Positions 33,999 to 42,684 of a DNA stretch of 64,000 nt are shown here, in pieces (the first letter of the stretch is position 1; the number at the start of each line of letters is the position of its first letter). The notes under the pieces are model-generated. The model saw only the letters and a program-made list of their open reading frames with translations. It was not told the origin of the DNA and made no database searches. The DNA lies in contig CAVQFC010000003.1 in NCBI GenBank assembly GCA_963711765.1, forward strand, positions 548,860 through 612,859, read 5' to 3'. The translations under genes were made by a program, and so were the position numbers. The DNA comes from an uncultured Acidobacteriota bacterium. GTDB lineage: Bacteria > Acidobacteriota > Vicinamibacteria > Vicinamibacterales > CAVVIG01.

Positions 33999-36440
33999 TT
34001 ACTCCCCTCTCAACGCGCTCACCACGTCCACCCGTGACGCCCTCGCCGCCGGCATCAGCGACGCGAGAATCGCCGCGGCGACGAGCACCGCAGCGGCACC
34101 GACAATCGGCGCCACTCCAGGAATCTCGATCTCCGCGACATAGCTGCTGGCGAGGCGCGCGAGCGCCAGGCCGACGACCGCACCCGCGACGATCCCGCTG
34201 ACGCCGATCACCGCGCCTTCCCTCAGAATGCGCGCCAGCAGCGCCGACGGCGTGGACCCGACGGCCAGGCGGATGCCGAATTCACGCGTTCGGGCGCTGA
34301 CGGAGAACGCCAGAACGCCTGCGACGCCGACGACCGCGATGGCGAGCGCGACGCCGGCGAATCCGCTGAACACCAGCGCGTTGATGCGATCGGGCGACAA
34401 CACCTCCGCGCGCACATCCTCCAGGGTCGCCGCGCGCTCTACCGGCTGATCCGACGCGAGACTCCGAATAATCTTCGTGATGCTGGGGACCAGCGCATAC
34501 GGGTCCCCCTTCGCCTGCACGAAGAGCCGGCCGCCGTTGGTCTCCTGCTCGATCGGCTGGTACACCGTCATCGTCGGCCTGGGCACGAGGTTCAGGTCGT
34601 CCACGTCGGCGACGACGCCGACGATGCGCCTCGGAGCGGTGCTCACGCCGATGAACTTCGTCACCGGATCGGTCCACATCACCCGGCGATTGACGGCGTC
34701 CATGTTCTCGAACATCCGCCGCGCCAGACTCTGGCTGACGATGACCACGCGCTCACCGTCACGGCGATCGTTGTCGTTGAAGTCACGGCCGGCGAGGATG
34801 CGCACGCCCAGCGCCGAGAAGAATCCCGGCGACACCGTCCGGAACTGCGCTCGTGGATCCTCTTCCCCGTTGGCTTTCCGATACCCTTCGGCCGTAAACT
34901 GCGCGGCGAAGAATCCCGGATCCCGCCAGGGCACTGCGGTCCCGACCGCAACCTGCTCCACGCCGGGCAACTCGGAGACGCGTCGTATCGCCTCCCGGTA
35001 AAACGCGGCAATCTCCGCGGGCTTCCGCGTGTACGACACGACCGGGACGTTGACGGCCAGCACGTTGCTTCTGAAGCCGGTCTGCTGGTGCTGCAGCGCG
35101 AAGAGCGCGGTGATGAGCATGCCCGCGCCCGTGAGCAGGACGAAGGACGCGGCGATCTGAGTGACCGCGAACACCTGCAGGCGGCGTTTCGTGCCCGTCG
35201 TGATCCGCGCGCTACCGCTCGAGAGGCCCAGCCCGCTTGCCGACTCCGCCGATGGAAGGCGCGGCACGAACGCGAGTAGAACGGCCGCGGCCACCGCGAG
35301 GATGACGCCCACCCAGAGCAGGCTCGCGTCCACCGTCACATCGTTGGCGCGCACGGAAAAGCGGGCCGCGTAGCGCGCGAGCACGGCAACCATCGGCCGG
35401 GCGATGACGATGGCCAGAACGGCGCCCGCCCCGCACAACACCAGGCTTTCGGCCAGGAGTGTTCGTCGCAGCGCTCCGGTGCCGGCGCCAAGCGCAGCGC
35501 GAACCGCCAGCTCCCCTTCCCTGCGAACCGACCGCGCGAGAATCAGATTCGCCACGTTCGAGCAGGCGACGATGAAGACCAGCGCCGAGGCTGCGAGCAG
35601 CACCAGCAGGATGGTTCGGGCCGGCGATGTGATCTGGTCGCGAAGGTTCATCGCATCGATCCGAAAGTCCGCCTGCGTCGAATACGCCTCCGGATGTGCT
35701 TTCACGATGGCGGCGTGCACGGCTCGAAGCTCGGCGCGAGCCGCGTCGAGATCTACGCCGGGTGCGAGCCGGCCGAAGAGCTCCGTCATCCGATGCACCC
35801 GACCCTCCACCATCGTCGCGTCGAGATGGTGCGGACTGGTCACCACGTTGGCGATGATCTCTGTTTCCTGCGGATACGGGACGGAAGGTTCGAGGACGCC
35901 AACAATCGTGGCCGGCCGATCGCTCAGCCTGATGTTCTTGCCGATGACTCCAGGATCGCCCCTGAACGCGGTGGTCCAGAAGCGATGCGTCAGCACCACC
36001 GCTCCCTGGGCCTTCGGTCCGTCATCACCGGCATTGAGCAGCCGTCCCATCTCCGGACGGAGGCCCATCACTTCGAAATAGGAGCCGCCGACGACGCCGG
36101 CGCGCACCGAGCGCGGCTCGCCGAGCCCGAGCATGGTGAACTCGATCGTGGAAAAATCGCCGAACGCGCTGAGGGTCTTCACCCGCGCCTGCAGATCCCG
36201 CAGCTCGGGGACCGAGAAGTTGGCGTTCTCCACGCCTATCCCCTTGGCGCTCTGCCGGATATAGATGAGCCGGTCCTGGTCGCGGTTGACGAGCGGCCTT
36301 AGCAGGACTCCCCGCACGACACTGAAGATGGCGGCGTTTGCGCCGATGCCGAGCGCCAGGGTGACAACGACGGTAAACGTCAGGCCCTTGGCTCTGGCGA
36401 GTGACCGCAGGGCGAATCGCAAATCGACAAAGAGGTTCAT
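33999..36440 (-). CDS. ADOP family duplicated ABC permease (MacB/FtsX-like)
   Basis: DLRFALRSL, TLALGIGANAAIFSVV, LIACSNVANL-like, RxxELAVRAALGAG, RTREFGIRLAVG, PAARASRVD...LRGE. Confidence 0.92.
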   Translation of the reverse strand: MNLFVDLRFALRSLARAKGLTFTVVVTLALGIGANAAIFSVVRGVLLRPLVNRDQDRLIYIRQSAKGIGVENANFSVPELRDLQARVKTLSAFGDFSTIEFTMLGLGEPRSVRAGVVGGSYFEVMGLRPEMGRLLNAGDDGPKAQGAVVLTHRFWTTAFRGDPGVIGKNIRLSDRPATIVGVLEPSVPYPQETEIIANVVTSPHHLDATMVEGRVHRMTELFGRLAPGVDLDAARAELRAVHAAIVKAHPEAYSTQADFRIDAMNLRDQITSPARTILLVLLAASALVFIVACSNVANLILARSVRREGELAVRAALGAGTGALRRTLLAESLVLCGAGAVLAIVIARPMVAVLARYAARFSVRANDVTVDASLLWVGVILAVAAAVLLAFVPRLPSAESASGLGLSSGSARITTGTKRRLQVFAVTQIAASFVLLTGAGMLITALFALQHQQTGFRSNVLAVNVPVVSYTRKPAEIAAFYREAIRRVSELPGVEQVAVGTAVPWRDPGFFAAQFTAEGYRKANGEEDPRAQFRTVSPGFFSALGVRILAGRDFNDNDRRDGERVVIVSQSLARRMFENMDAVNRRVMWTDPVTKFIGVSTAPRRIVGVVADVDDLNLVPRPTMTVYQPIEQETNGGRLFVQAKGDPYALVPSITKIIRSLASDQPVERAATLEDVRAEVLSPDRINALVFSGFAGVALAIAVVGVAGVLAFSVSARTREFGIRLAVGSTPSALLARILREGAVIGVSGIVAGAVVGLALARLASSYVAEIEIPGVAPIVGAAAVLVAAAILASLMPAARASRVDVVSALRGE

Positions 36441-36563
36441 ACCGTGAAGCCCTCCGGGCAAGGTGCCCCTATTTTTATAGTCGAACGAGCAGGCGCCAGA
36501 TCGACAAAATCCCAATGGCTGCCTGACACGTTTCGACGGTCCGGATCACCACCTCTTAGCCGT

Positions 36564-39035
36564 ATGTCGTCATCCTTTCGTGCTGCATCGATCGGAACGC
36601 TCCTGACGCTGATCTGCGCCGGCTGCACACCACAAGCGCCCCAGCAGGGGCCTGCCGATCTTGCGGTCGAAGCGCTGTCGATCTATACGCCGATGCCGGG
36701 CGCCAACGGCGACCGGCCAATCACAACCGGCTTCCGGATCGTCAACCATGGATCGTTCCCGGCACCGGCATCGACCGCGTTCGTCAAGGTCGGCGAGCGC
36801 GGCACGATCGTCGGCACACCCGCGCTCACCAAGGCGTCGACGCTCGGGTCCACGGCGTACCTGTCGGTTACGATCACCACCGCGGAAACCAGCTTCGCGG
36901 TCACGGCGCAGGCGGACGTTTTCAATCAAGTCCAGGAGACGACCAAGGACAACAACACGGCAACCTACGATTTCGGATCGGGCGGCGCCCCGGTCAACCA
37001 CTGGCGCGCCCTCGGGCCGTCGAAGATCATGATCGACTCGAGCCAGATTCGCGGGGTCGGACGCATCACCGCGATTGCCGCCGATCCGTTCTCGCCAGAC
37101 ACCGTGTACGCTGGCGCGCGCGGCACGGGTCTGTGGAGTTCGTTCGACGGCGGCGGGCACTGGCAGCCGCTGACCGACGCGCTGCCGACCACCAACATCC
37201 AGGCGATCGCCGTGGATCCGTCGAATCCCGCCCGGATCCTCATCGTCACGCCATCGGGAGTGTTCGGGTCGCTGGACGCGGGCCAATCCTGGCGCCAGCG
37301 GTTCACCCAGGATCTGAAGTCGGCCGCCATCGACGGCGGCGCGTTCTTCATCCATCCCCAGGATCCGCAGCGCGTCTACCTCACGACGCTGCAGGGCCTT
37401 CGCATCTCGCAGAACGGCGGCACCACCTGGGATCCGGCGGTGCTTGCAGCCGACGGCATCGTGCAGAGCCTCGCGCCGAGCCGCGGTGATCCGAACAGCC
37501 TGCTGGCGACGGTCGTCAACTCTCCAAGCGCCGGTGTATGGGAAGCAGACGACGGCGGCCTGACTGCGGGATCGTGGCGCAAGCTGCAGGGCTGCCCTGA
37601 TGGTCCCATTCCCGCGATCCCCGCGACCGGCGTGTCGGCGTGGGTGACGCGATCAGGCGTCACCGAATGGCTCGCGATCAAGAGCGGCAACGCGCACGAG
37701 CTGTGGCGCACGTCGAGCCGCGCGTGTGTGATTAACGGCCGCTTCGAGCGCGTCTGGGAGCGCCAGTCGGCCGGAGAACAGGTGCCGTGCATCACCAGTG
37801 ATGCGGACAACCGGTCGAACTGGAGCTTCCTGTTCGCGGATCCGACCGACGACAAGATCATCTACAAGGCCGGCATCCACCTGTGCCGATCGACCGATGG
37901 TGGCGCGCACTTCCAGGCCGTCGGGACGGCCAACGTGCACGTCGATTTTCACGCCCTGGTCTTTCACTCGACGTCAACCGGCGTGCTGTATCTCGGCAAC
38001 GACGGCGGCTTCTACCGATCCGACGACCACGGCCAGAACTGGACGTTCAAGTCCGAAGGGCTGGCCGTCAGCGAGTTCCTCGATATCGGCGTGTTTGGCG
38101 CATCGCCGCGCAGGGTCAGCGGCGCGGCCCAGGACAACATACTGTCCACGACCGACGAGTCGTCGCCGATCTGGCACGAAATCAATCTCGGGTCCGACCT
38201 CGACGGTGATCGAACGATGTCGGTCGTCGATCCGCTGAACGCCGACGTGCAATACAGCGCGGGCCAGGCGCTCGATCACTTCTCGCGGATTGCCGGCGGC
38301 CACCGCGACGAAGGGTTCGACAAGACGAACATGCCGGCGAATTGCCTGACCTACGACGAAACGCCGACGCTCAATGCCGAGATCATCGCCACCATCGCAC
38401 CGCAGTTCCATCTGCTGACGACCGCGGGCGTCGGCGACAGCTGCACCGGGCGCGGGCTATGGACCGGTCCGCCGTGGCGGAAGCTGTTCGAGCCACCGGT
38501 CGGCGACAGACTCATGCGCGTGCTGCACGACCCGGGGACCGGATTGTTCGTCGCCGGGAGCAGCATCGGATCGATCTACCTGAACTTCAGCCCCGACGCG
38601 ATGGCGAAGGTCTTCACCTCGCCGCAGGGCGGCACGGTCACCTCGATCGTCCGCGACCCGCCGAAGACCTCGGCCTTCTTCGTTGCGCTGCGGACGCAAG
38701 CGAACACACTCGGCCGCATTTTCGAGATCACGCCCGAGGCGCCGCTGCGATTCAAGGGCGTCGACATCACGGCGAACCTGCCGACCGGGGTGATCGTGAT
38801 GACGCTGGCGTTCAACCCGTTCGAGCCCGACGCGCTCTACGCGGGCACCCGCGGCGCCGGCATCTTCCGCGGCGTCCACGATGCCGCCGGCGCCTGGGCG
38901 TGGCAGGCGTTCAACAACGGCCTGCCGCAGGGCGCGATTGTCACGAAGCTGAAGGTCGACACCGCGCACGGCGGAATCTACGCCTCGACCTGGGGCCGCG
39001 GCGCGTTCGCGATGAACACGGTGTCGATTTTCTGA
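36564..39035 (+). CDS. Probable lipoprotein with CARDB-like domain and BNR/Asp-box (VPS10-like) beta-propeller
   Basis: LLTLICAGC lipobox-like; ADL.V...AD..N.V.E...DNN; repeated SxDGGxxW; HVDFH; GNDGG; ASTWGRG. Confidence 0.85.
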   Translation: MSSSFRAASIGTLLTLICAGCTPQAPQQGPADLAVEALSIYTPMPGANGDRPITTGFRIVNHGSFPAPASTAFVKVGERGTIVGTPALTKASTLGSTAYLSVTITTAETSFAVTAQADVFNQVQETTKDNNTATYDFGSGGAPVNHWRALGPSKIMIDSSQIRGVGRITAIAADPFSPDTVYAGARGTGLWSSFDGGGHWQPLTDALPTTNIQAIAVDPSNPARILIVTPSGVFGSLDAGQSWRQRFTQDLKSAAIDGGAFFIHPQDPQRVYLTTLQGLRISQNGGTTWDPAVLAADGIVQSLAPSRGDPNSLLATVVNSPSAGVWEADDGGLTAGSWRKLQGCPDGPIPAIPATGVSAWVTRSGVTEWLAIKSGNAHELWRTSSRACVINGRFERVWERQSAGEQVPCITSDADNRSNWSFLFADPTDDKIIYKAGIHLCRSTDGGAHFQAVGTANVHVDFHALVFHSTSTGVLYLGNDGGFYRSDDHGQNWTFKSEGLAVSEFLDIGVFGASPRRVSGAAQDNILSTTDESSPIWHEINLGSDLDGDRTMSVVDPLNADVQYSAGQALDHFSRIAGGHRDEGFDKTNMPANCLTYDETPTLNAEIIATIAPQFHLLTTAGVGDSCTGRGLWTGPPWRKLFEPPVGDRLMRVLHDPGTGLFVAGSSIGSIYLNFSPDAMAKVFTSPQGGTVTSIVRDPPKTSAFFVALRTQANTLGRIFEITPEAPLRFKGVDITANLPTGVIVMTLAFNPFEPDALYAGTRGAGIFRGVHDAAGAWAWQAFNNGLPQGAIVTKLKVDTAHGGIYASTWGRGAFAMNTVSIF

Positions 39036-39143
39036 GGCGCGAAGCGGTCGCTGAAACGTCTACGCCGCGTTCTTCACCATCTCCAAGACACGGCCGTAGC
39101 AGGCGCATATGGCGCAGGCCTCACGACCCAGAAGGAGAAGGAC

Positions 39144-39536
39144 ATGGCGACAACGAACGCTCGTGGATCAGAAAAGTTGATGGCGGCGTGGAAAACCCGG
39201 GCCCTGACGGAGGAGTCGGTCCGGGAGATTGCAACGCAGTTCGAGAAATCGCCCGCCAAGGTGGAGACCGCCGACGTCGTCGGAGGCGCCACGCCCACCG
39301 GCGTGCGGGTTTCGGCCAGCTACGACGGCGACGATGGGCCGTGGTGCGGAAACGACATCCTGTTCTGGCTCAAATGGCACCAGGTGCACGGCGGCAACCC
39401 GAAGCCACCGCGAATCATCATCAACGGCACGCCGTATCCCGAGTTCGTCAAGCTGCAGTTGGACTTCGGCCACGTCCCCGAGCAGGACATCAAGGATGCC
39501 GGTGGCGCGATCGCCGGCGGCGGTTTCGGTGGCTAG
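39144..39536 (+). CDS. 130-aa hypothetical protein, candidate radical SAM substrate or partner
   Basis: Strong Shine-Dalgarno (GAAGGAGAAGGAC-ATG); single Cys in YDGDDGPWCGND; overlaps the radical SAM start. Confidence 0.82.
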   Translation: MATTNARGSEKLMAAWKTRALTEESVREIATQFEKSPAKVETADVVGGATPTGVRVSASYDGDDGPWCGNDILFWLKWHQVHGGNPKPPRIIINGTPYPEFVKLQLDFGHVPEQDIKDAGGAIAGGGFGG

Positions 39537-40584
39537 CAGCAGCCCTACCGGCGTCGCGCCGGTGCTGCAGGTGCATCCCCTGCGCCGATGCAACCTGGAG
39601 TGCGCGCACTGCTACACCGGGTCGGGACCGACGGCGCGAGAGGAGCTCCCGATGGAGCTCCTCTCGGCGTGCCTCGAAGATGCCGTCCGCCTCGGATATC
39701 GGCAACTCGCGGTCTCCGGTGGCGAGCCGCTGCTGTACAGGCCACTGTCGCGTCTGCTCGCTCACGCCAGGTCGCTCGGCATGATCTCGACACTGACCAC
39801 CAACGGGATGCTGGCGACGCCGGCGAGGTGGGCTGGGCTTGCCCCGTTTGTGGACCTGGTCGCGATCTCGATCGACGGCACTCCCCACGAGCACGACACG
39901 ATTCGCCGGCGCGAGGGCGCATTCGCGAGAACTCTCGCCAATCTCGAGACGATTCGATCATCCGGTGTGCCCTTCGGGTTCATCTTCACGCTCACCCAGC
40001 ACAACGTGGACAGCCTCGAGTTCGTCGTGCGCCTGGCGGCGGATTTTGGCGCGCGGGGTGTGCAAGTGCACCCGTTGACGCTGCAAGGACGAGCGGCAAC
40101 AGACATGTACCACGCGCGTCCCGACGATCTGGAGTTGGCCGCGGCGCTCGCGGAAGCGGACGAACTGGGTAGAGTGCACGGTATTCCCGTGCACGTTGAC
40201 ACGGTCACTCACGCGCAGCTGCTCGCGCACCGCAACCACTTCGTTCCGGCGCGTCCAGTTGAACGGCTCGCCGACGTGGCGTCGACGCTGATCGTGAACG
40301 CCGACGGCACGGTCGTGCCGCTGACGCAGGATGTCGCGCCTCGCCTCGGACTCGGTGGCCTGACGAACGCTTCATTGACGTCTCTCGCGGACGGCTGGAT
40401 CGCCCGTGGATCCGGCGACCTGCTGGCGCAGGCATGCGACGAAGCCTGGCAGGCGCTGACCACCAGCAGCGGACCGCGCGTCCTCTACTGGTACGACGCG
40501 GTGGCGGCTCGCACGCAGGGGGTGTTTGGACGCGATCGCGAGCTGACGCGGTTCCCCGTTCTGAGACACCCGCAAGTCGCATAG
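39529..40584 (+). CDS. Radical SAM enzyme with degenerate SPASM/Twitch-like C-terminus
   Basis: RCNLECAHCY (CxxxCxxC), SGGEPLL, TTNG, ISIDG...HD.IR...GAF; GTG at 39529. Confidence 0.9.
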   Translation: MASSSPTGVAPVLQVHPLRRCNLECAHCYTGSGPTAREELPMELLSACLEDAVRLGYRQLAVSGGEPLLYRPLSRLLAHARSLGMISTLTTNGMLATPARWAGLAPFVDLVAISIDGTPHEHDTIRRREGAFARTLANLETIRSSGVPFGFIFTLTQHNVDSLEFVVRLAADFGARGVQVHPLTLQGRAATDMYHARPDDLELAAALAEADELGRVHGIPVHVDTVTHAQLLAHRNHFVPARPVERLADVASTLIVNADGTVVPLTQDVAPRLGLGGLTNASLTSLADGWIARGSGDLLAQACDEAWQALTTSSGPRVLYWYDAVAARTQGVFGRDRELTRFPVLRHPQVA

Positions 40585-40936
40585 CGTCGCCGAGCGCATG
40601 TGCCGGGAGCGGCCGCTGCGGCTGTGATACCGAGCGGCTTGCCTACGCCGCGTGACCGCTGCCGTAATCCTGATGCTGCCAGCACAGATCGACGACGGCC
40701 TCTCGCCACGTCGAAAACCTGAAGCGAAAACCGCTTTGCAACAGTCGGCCGGGGATGACGCGACGGCTTTTCAGGAGGAGCCCGGTCTCGGTCCGCATGA
40801 AGACGGCGCCGATCTCGAGCATCCATCCTGTTGCGGGCAGACCGGCGGCTCAAGACGACGTCGCGGCCGTCAGCGTGAAAAGCGCGCGCGAACCGGTACC
40901 GACCTGTCCTGACCCCACCGGAATCACGGTAGTGGG

Positions 40937-41425
40937 TCAGTTTGAATCGTCACCTATCGAGCGCCTCCGCGCCAGCCGCGCGTATACCAAGCCGGAAGCG
41001 GCTCCCGCGACCCCGAAGAGGGCCATTGGCACCAGATGAAGCACTTGCCGCAGAATTTCGCCGTGGGCTGACCGTGGATTGTCGACCCAACCCAGGACGA
41101 CGAGTGCAATCCAAGCTGCAGACACGCCCCAAACGATGGCTACCACATAACTAGGTCGTCGTATCGGCGGCCAGACGATAAGGACCGGCACGACAAACAA
41201 TGCTGCGGCACCGTAGCAGAACGGAGCAATCCAGAGAGCCAACCACGGCGCCAGGAATGCCATGCCTGGCCCCTCGGCAGGCGAGAGCACGGCTGGTCCA
41301 GGCGGGAGACGGTAAACGGCGGCTTCGACCAACATGGCGACCGTGAGCACCGTGAGTCCTGCGAGCGGTGCAACTGCGAGAGACGAAAGCGCGCGTCTAA
41401 GGGGAAGACTCCTTCGGTCGCTCAT
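40937..41425 (-). CDS. Hypothetical membrane protein
   Basis: About four hydrophobic segments. Confidence 0.55.
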   Translation of the reverse strand: MSDRRSLPLRRALSSLAVAPLAGLTVLTVAMLVEAAVYRLPPGPAVLSPAEGPGMAFLAPWLALWIAPFCYGAAALFVVPVLIVWPPIRRPSYVVAIVWGVSAAWIALVVLGWVDNPRSAHGEILRQVLHLVPMALFGVAGAASGLVYARLARRRSIGDDSN

Positions 41426-41496: not shown

Positions 41497-41946
41497 TCAG
41501 TCCACGAAGCGGCGTCGAAACGCCGCGTCGGGCAACTGACATTGGTCGTAGCGCCCAAACACGCGAGACCGATATCGAGCCACCACGTCGTACATCCGAT
41601 CTCGCACCGCCTTTGGAACGACCCGCGCCGCCTGCAGGGCCCGCCACGGCCACCCAAGCTGTCCGGTGACAAAGAGTGCTGCATCGCTCTTGGTGAGCGC
41701 CCGCGCTCGGGGCGAGCGAAAATCTGCGATGACATAGAGCGAGTTCAAATCGGCGGGGTTCCCGCCATTTCGCTGTACGGTCGCACGACCGACCACGCTC
41801 TGAAGCGAACCAAAACTGAACACCGCTCTTCGATCGCGGGCGAGGACGAATTGAACGAGCCGGCTGCAGAGCCCGCAGACGCCGTCGTACAGCACGAGGT
41901 GCGTGCCGGGAGCCGCTGAGGGGGATTGCGCTGGTCGACCGGTCAT
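41497..41946 (-). CDS. DCC1/YuxK-like thiol-disulfide oxidoreductase family protein
   Basis: LYDGVCGLC, F.SLQS, KSDA, RD..YD.VAR.R.R.FGR.D.C. Confidence 0.88.
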   Translation of the reverse strand: MTGRPAQSPSAAPGTHLVLYDGVCGLCSRLVQFVLARDRRAVFSFGSLQSVVGRATVQRNGGNPADLNSLYVIADFRSPRARALTKSDAALFVTGQLGWPWRALQAARVVPKAVRDRMYDVVARYRSRVFGRYDQCQLPDAAFRRRFVD

Positions 41947-41958
41947 GTTCTAATATTA

Positions 41959-42684
41959 ATGAACATGTTCACCTTAAATGTCAAGCTACGAAAACGGGGC
42001 CGGCCGGCCGGCGAGACCGCTCAGGGCGCGGCCGCCCGGGAGCGGTTGTACGGCGTGGCGATCGGGATGATCGCGAAGCGGGGTTACGAGGCGACCACGC
42101 TGCGGGATATCGCCAGGGAAGCGGACGTCAGCGTCGGCCTGCTCTATCGCTACTTCCCCGGCAAACAGGCGATCGTCCTCGCGCTCTACGACGAACTGTC
42201 GGCGGACTATGCACGCCAGGCCGAGGAGATGCCGTCCGGCCGGTGGCGCGATCGCTTTCTGTTCGCGCTGAACAAGAGCCTCGACGTGCTCCGGCCTCAC
42301 CAGGTCGCGCTTCGAGCGCTGACACCGGTCATGGTCGGCGATCCGGAGGAAGGAATCGTTTCAACCCGCACCGCGTTCTCACGCCTCCGCGTGCAACGAG
42401 TATTCGAGGAAGCGGTCGTGCGGTCCAGCGACGCGCCGAAGCAGCCGCTGGCCGAGGCGCTGGGCCGCCTGCTCTACCTGGTGCATCTCGCCGTGCTGCT
42501 CTGGTGGCTGCTCGACAAGAGCACGAATCAGCGCGCGACCAGGGCGCTCGTCACGCTGACGGAGCAGCTTCTGCCTTCTGCGACTCTCGCGCTTCGTGTG
42601 CCGCCGGTTCGACGATTCGTGATCGCCGTCGATGGACTGATACGAGAAGCGCTCTTCGGCACTTCCTCGTCACGCGCCGGTTGA
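41959..42684 (+). CDS. TetR family transcriptional regulator
   Basis: GYEATTLRDIAREADVSVGLLYRYFPGK; start at ATG 41959 or 41965. Confidence 0.9.
   Translation: MNMFTLNVKLRKRGRPAGETAQGAAARERLYGVAIGMIAKRGYEATTLRDIAREADVSVGLLYRYFPGKQAIVLALYDELSADYARQAEEMPSGRWRDRFLFALNKSLDVLRPHQVALRALTPVMVGDPEEGIVSTRTAFSRLRVQRVFEEAVVRSSDAPKQPLAEALGRLLYLVHLAVLLWWLLDKSTNQRATRALVTLTEQLLPSATLALRVPPVRRFVIAVDGLIREALFGTSSSRAG
41960..41971. promoter_or_regulatory. Candidate TetR operator
   Basis: Perfect palindrome TGAACATGTTCA between the divergent starts; extra half-site CATGTTC at 41944-41950. Confidence 0.55.

Follow-up and report, generated by a model that had tools for sequence, protein, structure and literature searches.

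An obligate pair of overlapping genes

The subject of this report is a pair of overlapping genes in a 64,000 nucleotide stretch of DNA (the window) from an uncultured Acidobacteriota bacterium (GenBank assembly GCA_963711765.1, contig CAVQFC010000003.1, positions 548,860 to 612,859 of the forward strand). Coordinates below are window positions unless another locus is named, the features of the pair are all on the + strand, and labels beginning with P or L are our own for proteins and loci. The upstream gene (39144..39536) encodes a protein of 130 amino acids (P0001) and is preceded by the Shine-Dalgarno (SD) sequence AAGGAG at 39132..39137, 6 nt 5′ of its ATG. The downstream gene (39529..40584) encodes a radical S-adenosylmethionine (rSAM) enzyme of 351 amino acids (P0002); its GTG start at 39529 lies ahead of the TAG stop of the small gene (39534-39536), and the two reading frames share the 8 nt at 39529..39536, an arrangement for translational coupling. 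An earlier interpretation made from the letters alone (the sequence-only reading) had described a strong SD sequence, the 8 nt overlap, a CxxxCxxC motif in the second gene, and in the small protein one Cys (C68) within YDGDDGPWCGND followed by FWLKWH, IINGTPYP and a Gly-rich end (...GGGFGG), all of which are present as it said. It had proposed that the two proteins are a substrate and the maturase that modifies it.

The association of the two genes was measured in both directions. In the forward direction one genome per species was scanned with the small protein alone, which gave 33 loci that span at least six phyla, and an rSAM orthologue (42–91% identity) lies directly downstream on the same strand in all 33, the neighbour that the sequence-only reading had expected beside homologues of the small protein. 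In the reverse direction the enzyme alone was compared with metagenome contigs and 80 loci were kept; the small gene is directly upstream of eight of the nine close rSAM relatives (E of 1e-49 or better). The ninth, in metagenome locus L040 (2905-4026), is 60% identical to the enzyme, has the cluster motif CxxxCxxR and has no small gene upstream; an old-yellow-enzyme-like open reading frame (ORF) ends 82 nt before the rSAM frame and leaves no room for one. This single case is possibly a decaying orphan or a sequencing error. At the 59 loci where the rSAM match is more distant and limited to the core, no small-protein-like ORF was found; some of these loci have short flanks.

The small gene occurs exactly once per locus in all 57 loci that have a match, and once per genome. 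Pairwise distances of the two proteins at 34 loci (the window included) correlate with a Mantel r of 0.856 that none of 2000 permutations reached, a statistic that is inflated by the relatedness of the hosts; the mean p-distance is 0.349 for the small protein vs 0.400 for the enzyme, so the small protein is slightly the more conserved of the two. The enzyme's start codon stands at the identical position, −8 relative to the end of the small gene, in 22 of these 34 loci. The two genes are thus an obligate, co-inherited and translationally coupled unit. To this extent the proposed pair stands, whereas its further claim, that the partner is a substrate rather than a subunit, is not supported by these observations. 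Several apparent departures from the one-to-one pattern were set aside: the “second tandem copy” that loose single-linkage clustering suggested for Thermoleophilia loci is made up of shadow ORFs (by tblastn each locus has a single small gene); a 750 amino acid “fused” ORF in L027 is an off-frame shadow without a Pfam match; and two “fusions” of the small protein to the start of the rSAM enzyme, P0008 (183 amino acids) and P0274 (184 amino acids), have sequences that look like frameshifted read-throughs.

The small protein and the enzyme

The small protein belongs to no described family, as the sequence-only reading had supposed. No Pfam, NCBIfam or PADLOC model matched it at E ≤ 1, and its 207 homologues at E ≤ 0.001 among 5.8 billion clusters are all unnamed or “hypothetical”; the 120 homologues listed are 60–79% identical to it. 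Comparison with solved structures gave only noise (E ≥ 0.33), comparison with the PHROGs gave only matches at E 0.03 and 0.38, and the ESM Atlas lacked the window's own sequence and had no usable match for two small-protein homologues. A search of the full-text literature, with supplementary family lists outside it, found no description of the pair or of the small-protein family. When 1.84 billion representatives were searched exhaustively with a profile, 57 clusters were returned. Their members are 48–184 amino acids long, save for P0290 (1603 amino acids), a repeat protein whose match is spurious, and in this set the small protein never occurs as a domain within a larger protein.

Residues 7–111 are conserved end to end, with 33 invariant columns in 27 sequences, among them C68-G-N-D, F74, W78, H79, G95, P97 and P99, and this conservation over the whole length fits the earlier suggestion of a folded protein rather than a cleaved peptide. 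When divergent members are included the near-invariant positions are reduced to R7, G8, S9, A15, G47, C68, G69, D71, G95, P97 and G109. Read by eye, the protein appears to have helices in its N-terminal part and two beta-hairpins, each of which carries an invariant Gly at the tip: the codons for G47-G48 (39282..39287) would be at the tip of the first predicted hairpin, and those for N94-G95-T96-P97-Y98-P99-E100 (39423..39443) make up the second-hairpin motif, xG(I/T)PxP(D/E). Between them lie the codons for C68-G69-N70-D71 (39345..39356), which include the sole Cys and are nearly invariant in the family and missing from distant subfamilies.

Small proteins with the hairpin motif extend beyond this family. 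Distant full-length rSAM relatives (30–46% identity) have an upstream ORF of 100–130 amino acids with the motif at 10 metagenome loci, and other Acidobacteriota genomes with an rSAM enzyme of the same clade have such an ORF upstream in four cases of four. That of L045 keeps RGS, DDDWCGNG and LINGIPVPD; those of L042, L043, L047, L048, L060 and L117 have FPxG(I/T)PxP(D/E) twice and no Cys; and those of L050, L052, L053, L118 and L119 have VCxxGICxD plus LFPWGIPxPD. Profile comparisons by hhalign, over 85–103 columns, align the window's family with subfamily A5 (probability 94.9%, E 4.2e-8) and with subfamily A6 (87.3%, E 3.8e-6), and A5 with A6 (97.5%, E 7.1e-12), which supports homology of the three subfamilies. 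In a joint superfamily alignment G47 and G95 are the only invariant residues, and the profile of that alignment matches 550 clusters, all unnamed or “hypothetical”, of which the members used to build the profile match by construction. The alignments indicate that Cys68 is a hallmark of the family and the NG(T/I)PxP(D/E) hairpin motif a feature of the superfamily. Of the two motifs, CGN and NGxP(Y/F)P, whose conservation the sequence-only reading had singled out, the second therefore extends across the superfamily (as NGxPxP(D/E)), while Cys68/CGND, like W78 and H79, is family-specific. A different upstream ORF of 110–130 amino acids, without the hairpin motif, accompanies more distant rSAM enzymes of the same clade, which score 159–164 bits (L049:2460-2858 and L051:436-771); its pattern is LTLxxEP...AAQIxAQI...FDGxxGFGT...P(R/P)P, and it is possibly another partner family.

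The two hairpin elements form an internal repeat in A5 (hhalign E 2.9e-7 over 23 columns) and a weak one in A6 (E 0.006); in the window's own family an internal duplication is not significant (E 0.07–0.27). Glycyl radical proteins carry an RVxG(Y/F)-type motif near the C-terminus. The invariant glycines of the present family stand in VVGG and INGTP contexts, which do not conform to that motif, and the best activase-type match of the rSAM enzyme, NrdG2, scores 49.6 bits vs a cut-off of 131.

The variable Gly-rich tail of the small protein (39486..39536) was a feature of note in the sequence-only reading, and it is largely explained by what else this DNA encodes, since it also holds the G-rich ribosome-binding stretch and the start codon of the rSAM gene. 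The −8 start codon (GTG, ATG or once TTG among the 34 loci) sits inside the last two codons of the small gene: NGT-GGN, with a GTG start, reads G-G or R-G, and CAT-GGN, with an ATG start, reads H-G. The small proteins of these loci end in GG (11), RG (7) or HG (6), and the final residue is Gly in 26 of the 34. Most of the loci that lack the −8 start end differently (L005, L014, L022, L023, L027, L028 and L034), yet L021 and L029 among them end in GG and L030 and L031 in RG. In addition, a G-rich SD-like stretch (GGAGG, GGGG or GCGG) 5–8 bases 5′ of the rSAM start is read as Gly codons in the small gene, and the tail is absent or very short in P0271, P0272, L045 and L116. The tail probably ends in GG and is rich in Gly largely because the start codon and SD sequence of the rSAM gene overlap the end of the small gene, and its composition and GG end are thus probably in the main an imprint of translational coupling, not a ubiquitin-like or core-peptide signal.

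The downstream protein matches PF04055 at 77.6 bits vs a gathering threshold of 29.5, which places it in the radical SAM superfamily. The codons for its [4Fe-4S]/SAM cluster motif, C21-N-L-E-C25-A-H-C28, are at 39589..39612, and C21, C25 and C28 are invariant in 20 of 20 aligned homologues. The only other invariant Cys in these is C303 (codon 40435..40437), which is also the only one in the C-terminal half and is a candidate hydrogen atom donor; C48 is nearly invariant and lies in the core. C303 is kept in the distant relatives L042, L046, L049 and L051 and lost in L047, L050, L052 and L053. There is no Pfam match to a SPASM domain at E ≤ 1 and no C-terminal Cys-rich auxiliary-cluster motif, and because there are no further invariant cysteines the enzyme should be unable to ligate a SPASM/twitch cluster. 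With the cluster motif starting at residue 21, there is no space for an N-terminal RRE, the recognition element of maturases that act on peptides made by the ribosome and modified after translation (RiPPs).

The enzyme has 615 homologue clusters in the databases, some of which auto-name its homologues “Fe-coproporphyrin III synthase”; it lies outside the characterized cofactor families, as the sequence-only reading had anticipated, with every NCBIfam equivalog far under its cut-off: NirJ 103.7 bits (cut-off 515.45), pseudo-SAM/SPASM 96 (525), StsB 81.6 (625), PqqE 72.2 (381), MftC 65.2 (265) and SkfB 61.6 (300). All of the best matches, which also include AhbC/D, are confined to residues 7–206. 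Among solved structures the thioether-forming SkfB comes closest (E 2.5e-22), ahead of CteB, BlsE, viperins, PqqE and anSME, and these matches too are confined to the core. In the C-terminal part, the conserved stretch LVVxADGxVVPLTHDV..LGSL resembles a SPASM hairpin whose cysteines have been replaced; it falls in residues 254–278 (LIVNADGTVVPLTQDVAPRLGLGGL; 40288..40362), a SPASM/twitch-like beta-hairpin stretch minus its cysteines. It aligns with CteB only in a second, non-significant stretch (0.2 bits), for which reason we can only infer, for the C-terminal domain, that the enzyme descends from the SPASM/twitch lineage of peptide and cofactor maturases and has lost the auxiliary-cluster cysteines.

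Neighbourhood and possible roles

The small gene and the rSAM gene are the only gene types common to all 33 genome loci in ORF clustering, in which the other large clusters are shadow ORFs; under stricter clustering one flanking family only occurs in two or more taxon groups, at varying distances and on varying strands. Short flanking ORFs (at least 18 codons, within 700 nt on either side) include none that are similar between groups at E ≤ 1e-4, a comparison with weak power for peptides shorter than about 25 amino acids. By Pfam, the neighbours elsewhere have unrelated functions (MAPEG, APH kinase, AIR-synthase-like, glyoxalase, GNAT, MCP, endonuclease and amidohydrolase), and those in the window are a BNR/Sortilin-CARDB protein, a MacB/FtsX permease, a DCC1-like oxidoreductase, a TetR regulator, an alpha/beta hydrolase and a PD40 protein. 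The observation that no protease, RRE or transporter adjoins the pair holds more widely, in that none is conserved beside it across the examined loci; the MacB/FtsX-type permease gene (33999-36515, opposite strand, about 2.6 kb upstream) does not travel with it.

Immediately upstream, an 863 amino acid protein with CARDB and BNR/Sortilin-Vps10/YCF48-like repeats is encoded at 36444-39035 (+) and ends 108 nt 5′ of the small gene. It was not found in three related genomes and is not linked to the pair elsewhere, and because it is missing from those three genomes no empty site can be defined for synteny. Downstream, a DCC1-like thiol-disulfide oxidoreductase gene (41497-41946, −) is divergent from a TetR-family regulator gene (41926-42684, +); the 5′ ends of their longest ORFs overlap by 21 nt, and the true starts are probably further in. 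In Piscinibacterium candidicorallinum (L031, 6382-7584) the pair is closely preceded, on the same strand, by an AIR-synthase-related gene (PF00586/PF02769), and the rSAM gene is followed without gaps by two unannotated ORFs. Within 38800-41000 of the window no sigma-70-like promoter or intrinsic terminator was found, and the GC content around the pair is that of its surroundings.

Carriers of the pair belong to the Acidobacteriota, Thermoleophilia/Gaiellales, Limnocylindria, Burkholderiales (Roseateles, Mitsuaria, Undibacterium and Piscinibacterium), Myxococcota, Nitrospiraceae, Alphaproteobacteria and Actinomycetales. Within its own phylum the pair is in one of 401 sampled genomes, that of the window itself, so it is rare and patchy; the small protein had no match on the plasmids or phages searched. 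The best explanation of this pattern is a self-contained two-gene module that is acquired sporadically. The assembly that contains the window is 5.44 Mb in 4 contigs with a marker-gene completeness of 55.78%, which is oddly low for so contiguous an assembly, and the marker set may fit this lineage poorly.

What, then, might the small protein do? We favour, with somewhat less than even confidence, the reading that it is the enzyme's own substrate. Maturases of this lineage have their substrate gene directly upstream, a module that works in such different hosts would have to bring its substrate along, the small protein is never fused to the enzyme, and the enzyme has no recognition domain of its own. 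The substrate role, the type of chemistry and the target residue are all inferred. The scheme would run as follows: a cytoplasmic 130 amino acid alpha/beta protein is made one-to-one, and translationally coupled, with its dedicated rSAM enzyme, which would bind the folded small protein directly; the 5′-deoxyadenosyl radical would abstract a hydrogen from it; and the reaction would be completed in a redox-neutral manner that needs no electron-sink cluster. Return of a hydrogen atom from Cys303 could, for example, give an epimerization, or a rearrangement could occur at the C68-G-N-D loop or the NG(T/I)PxP(D/E) hairpin, and the product would in either case remain a modified folded protein.

The sequence-only reading had named thioethers, Trp cyclophanes and epimers as candidate products. 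According to a review, auxiliary clusters are essential for thioether and C–C crosslinks, as a substrate-binding site or an electron sink, and the proteusin epimerases have the rSAM cluster only, plus one strictly conserved Cys as hydrogen atom donor (PMC8326336). With one cluster, C303 and no auxiliary-cluster Cys in the present enzyme, thioethers and cyclophanes are therefore weakened, and redox-neutral chemistry of the epimerization or rearrangement type remains the more comfortable assignment.

Several observations weigh against a substrate role or against details of this scheme. An epimerase-like donor role cannot be general, because C303 is lost in the four distant relatives named above; Cys68 is absent from subfamilies A5 and A6 and from the family member P0249; and because only two glycines are conserved superfamily-wide there is no obvious universal target side chain. 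The relatedness of the hosts inflates the correlation of the two proteins (above), and the conservation over the whole length, the strict 1:1 stoichiometry and the translational coupling would fit a stable heteromeric enzyme equally well.

The main rival is accordingly that the small protein serves the enzyme as a subunit without being its substrate, for instance as a specificity factor, chaperone or scaffold comparable to PqqD with PqqE, and that the true substrate is something present in every host (a metabolite, nucleotide, universal protein or universal RNA). We consider this somewhat unlikely, but it accounts well for coupling by the 8 nt overlap in 22 of 34 loci and one copy per enzyme throughout, for conservation over the entire folded length, for a superfamily in which just two structural-looking hairpin glycines are kept, for an enzyme without an RRE of its own, and for a module that functions as a two-gene unit in very different hosts. 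In related systems, discrete recognition domains are often fused, and among the 1.84 billion representatives no fusion of the small protein with the enzyme or with another domain occurs. Nor is there a conserved precursor-like short ORF nearby that might be the substrate instead (the power of that comparison being low for very short peptides), and no similarity of the small protein to a Pfam or NCBIfam family was detected.

A toxin-antitoxin or anti-phage pair, with the upstream protein as neutralizer of a viperin-like rSAM effector whose product is toxic, would explain the two overlapping frames with the small gene first, the very patchy occurrence (a single carrier among 401 genomes of its own phylum, and 33 species genomes in the collection overall) and the varying neighbours. 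The enzyme even has weak pVip matches in PADLOC (64 bits), but these are limited to residues 13–130, which is only the generic cluster region, and the small protein has no PADLOC match. Antitoxins and defence genes evolve fast, whereas both proteins of the present pair are unusually well conserved across phyla; furthermore, plasmids and phages yielded no match to the small protein, the window has no defence-island context, and each genome has one copy. We therefore regard this explanation as improbable.

A classical RiPP, in which residues 1–111 are a long leader and the variable Gly-rich tail of about 20 residues is the core that is modified and released, we regard as likewise improbable. A conserved body with a variable tail and an enzyme descended from RiPP and cofactor maturases speak for it, a precursor-like gene does lie beside the enzyme gene as in RiPP systems (33 of 33, 8 of 9 and 4 of 4 loci), and proteusins offer an analogy in their long nitrile hydratase-like leaders and single-cluster rSAM enzymes (PMC8326336). 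Nonetheless, the SD-like stretch and the overlapped start codon largely determine how the tail is composed and which two residues end it, some members have little or no tail (above), there is no conserved protease or exporter and no leader and core architecture, and no NHLP or Nif11 model matches. The supposed leader is, moreover, 60–79% identical across phyla. Identity that high across phyla is far above what is expected of RiPP leaders. That the two genes are unrelated neighbours that merely happen to overlap can be dismissed almost entirely, given their adjacency (33 of 33 genome loci, 8 of 9 close relatives and 4 of 4 distant pairs), their co-divergence, and the absence of such an ORF from all 59 control loci.

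Returning to the substrate reading, we tentatively propose a wider picture that we consider possible rather than probable: the pair would be the best-conserved branch of an undescribed class of rSAM-matured proteins, in which a redox-neutral modification made within the protein gives the folded protein of 130 amino acids a function of its own. The class would comprise about 550 clusters of two-hairpin proteins, with a cluster-depleted, SPASM-derived rSAM enzyme encoded behind the small protein at each of the 14 distant loci examined, and the modification might be, for example, a D-residue or a rearranged Cys/Gly loop. If this is true, it would be a new post-translational modification system and not a peptide natural product.

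Comparison with known systems

An rSAM enzyme with a gene-encoded partner has repeatedly led to new chemistry: pyrroloquinoline quinone (PQQ), mycofactocin, sactipeptides, epimerized peptides and protein crosslinks. An rSAM enzyme with a dedicated gene-encoded partner is a known arrangement, and what is new here is the combination of a cluster-depleted enzyme, apparently of SPASM lineage, with a folded protein of two predicted hairpins and nothing else conserved. The module's small protein is 60–79% identical across phyla and the module is unannotated in Pfam, NCBIfam and PADLOC; since it consists of just two genes and has cultured, non-pathogenic carriers (strains of the four Burkholderiales genera above), it is directly testable by co-expression. 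The enzyme would also be an example of a SPASM-lineage rSAM protein without auxiliary clusters, which bears on how this lineage changes its chemistry, and the small protein illustrates that so conspicuous a feature as a Gly-rich ...GG tail can reflect translational-coupling signals and not a functional motif.

A DUF4130/rSAM pair described in a preprint (10.64898/2026.08.19.745780) is unrelated to the present one. The tetrapyrrole-modifying rSAM enzymes NirJ, AhbC and AhbD give the highest NCBIfam scores, but the NirJ score of 103.7 bits is one fifth of its cut-off and covers residues 11–191 only, the auxiliary-cluster cysteines are absent, and there are no haem d1 or alternative haem genes near the pair. 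PqqE with PqqD and MftC with MftB are alike in that an rSAM enzyme of the same lineage works with a separately encoded small protein (PqqE 72 bits and MftC 65 bits on the core; PqqE structure 6c8v, E 5.8e-11). Next to the pair those systems have genes for a peptide substrate and for more enzymes, and their enzymes have SPASM clusters, whereas nothing else is conserved here, and the present small protein matches no PqqD-like or other model. QhpD-QhpC is a case in which the rSAM enzyme introduces crosslinks into a small protein subunit and the product is still a protein; QhpD, a SPASM enzyme, forms Cys thioethers, and QhpC acts within a three-subunit dehydrogenase. The present pair, by contrast, lacks auxiliary clusters and partner subunits and its small protein has only one Cys; the likeness is a conceptual one.

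With the proteusin epimerases PoyD and OspD, as described in PMC8326336, the enzyme appears to share a single [4Fe-4S] cluster and, within its family, one conserved extra Cys (here C303), and proteusin substrates likewise have a long conserved N-terminal part, the NHLP leader. The same source gives those epimerases a C-terminal RRE, in contrast to the present C-terminal domain, which looks SPASM-derived; no sequence relationship to PoyD or OspD was detected, no NHLP or epimerase model is among the NCBIfam or Pfam matches of either protein, C303 is not kept in all subfamilies, and no hypervariable core was found. Finally, the maturases of sactipeptides and ranthipeptides are like the present enzyme in sequence (SkfB, 6efn, E 2.5e-22 over profile positions 18–210; CteB, 5wgg, E 2e-13), and SkfB/sactipeptide-type systems share its gene order, with the substrate gene directly upstream of the maturase gene. 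Unlike SkfB and CteB, the present enzyme has no auxiliary-cluster cysteines, no Pfam SPASM match and no N-terminal RRE, and its partner, in place of the short Cys-rich peptide of the sactipeptide systems, is a conserved protein of 130 amino acids.

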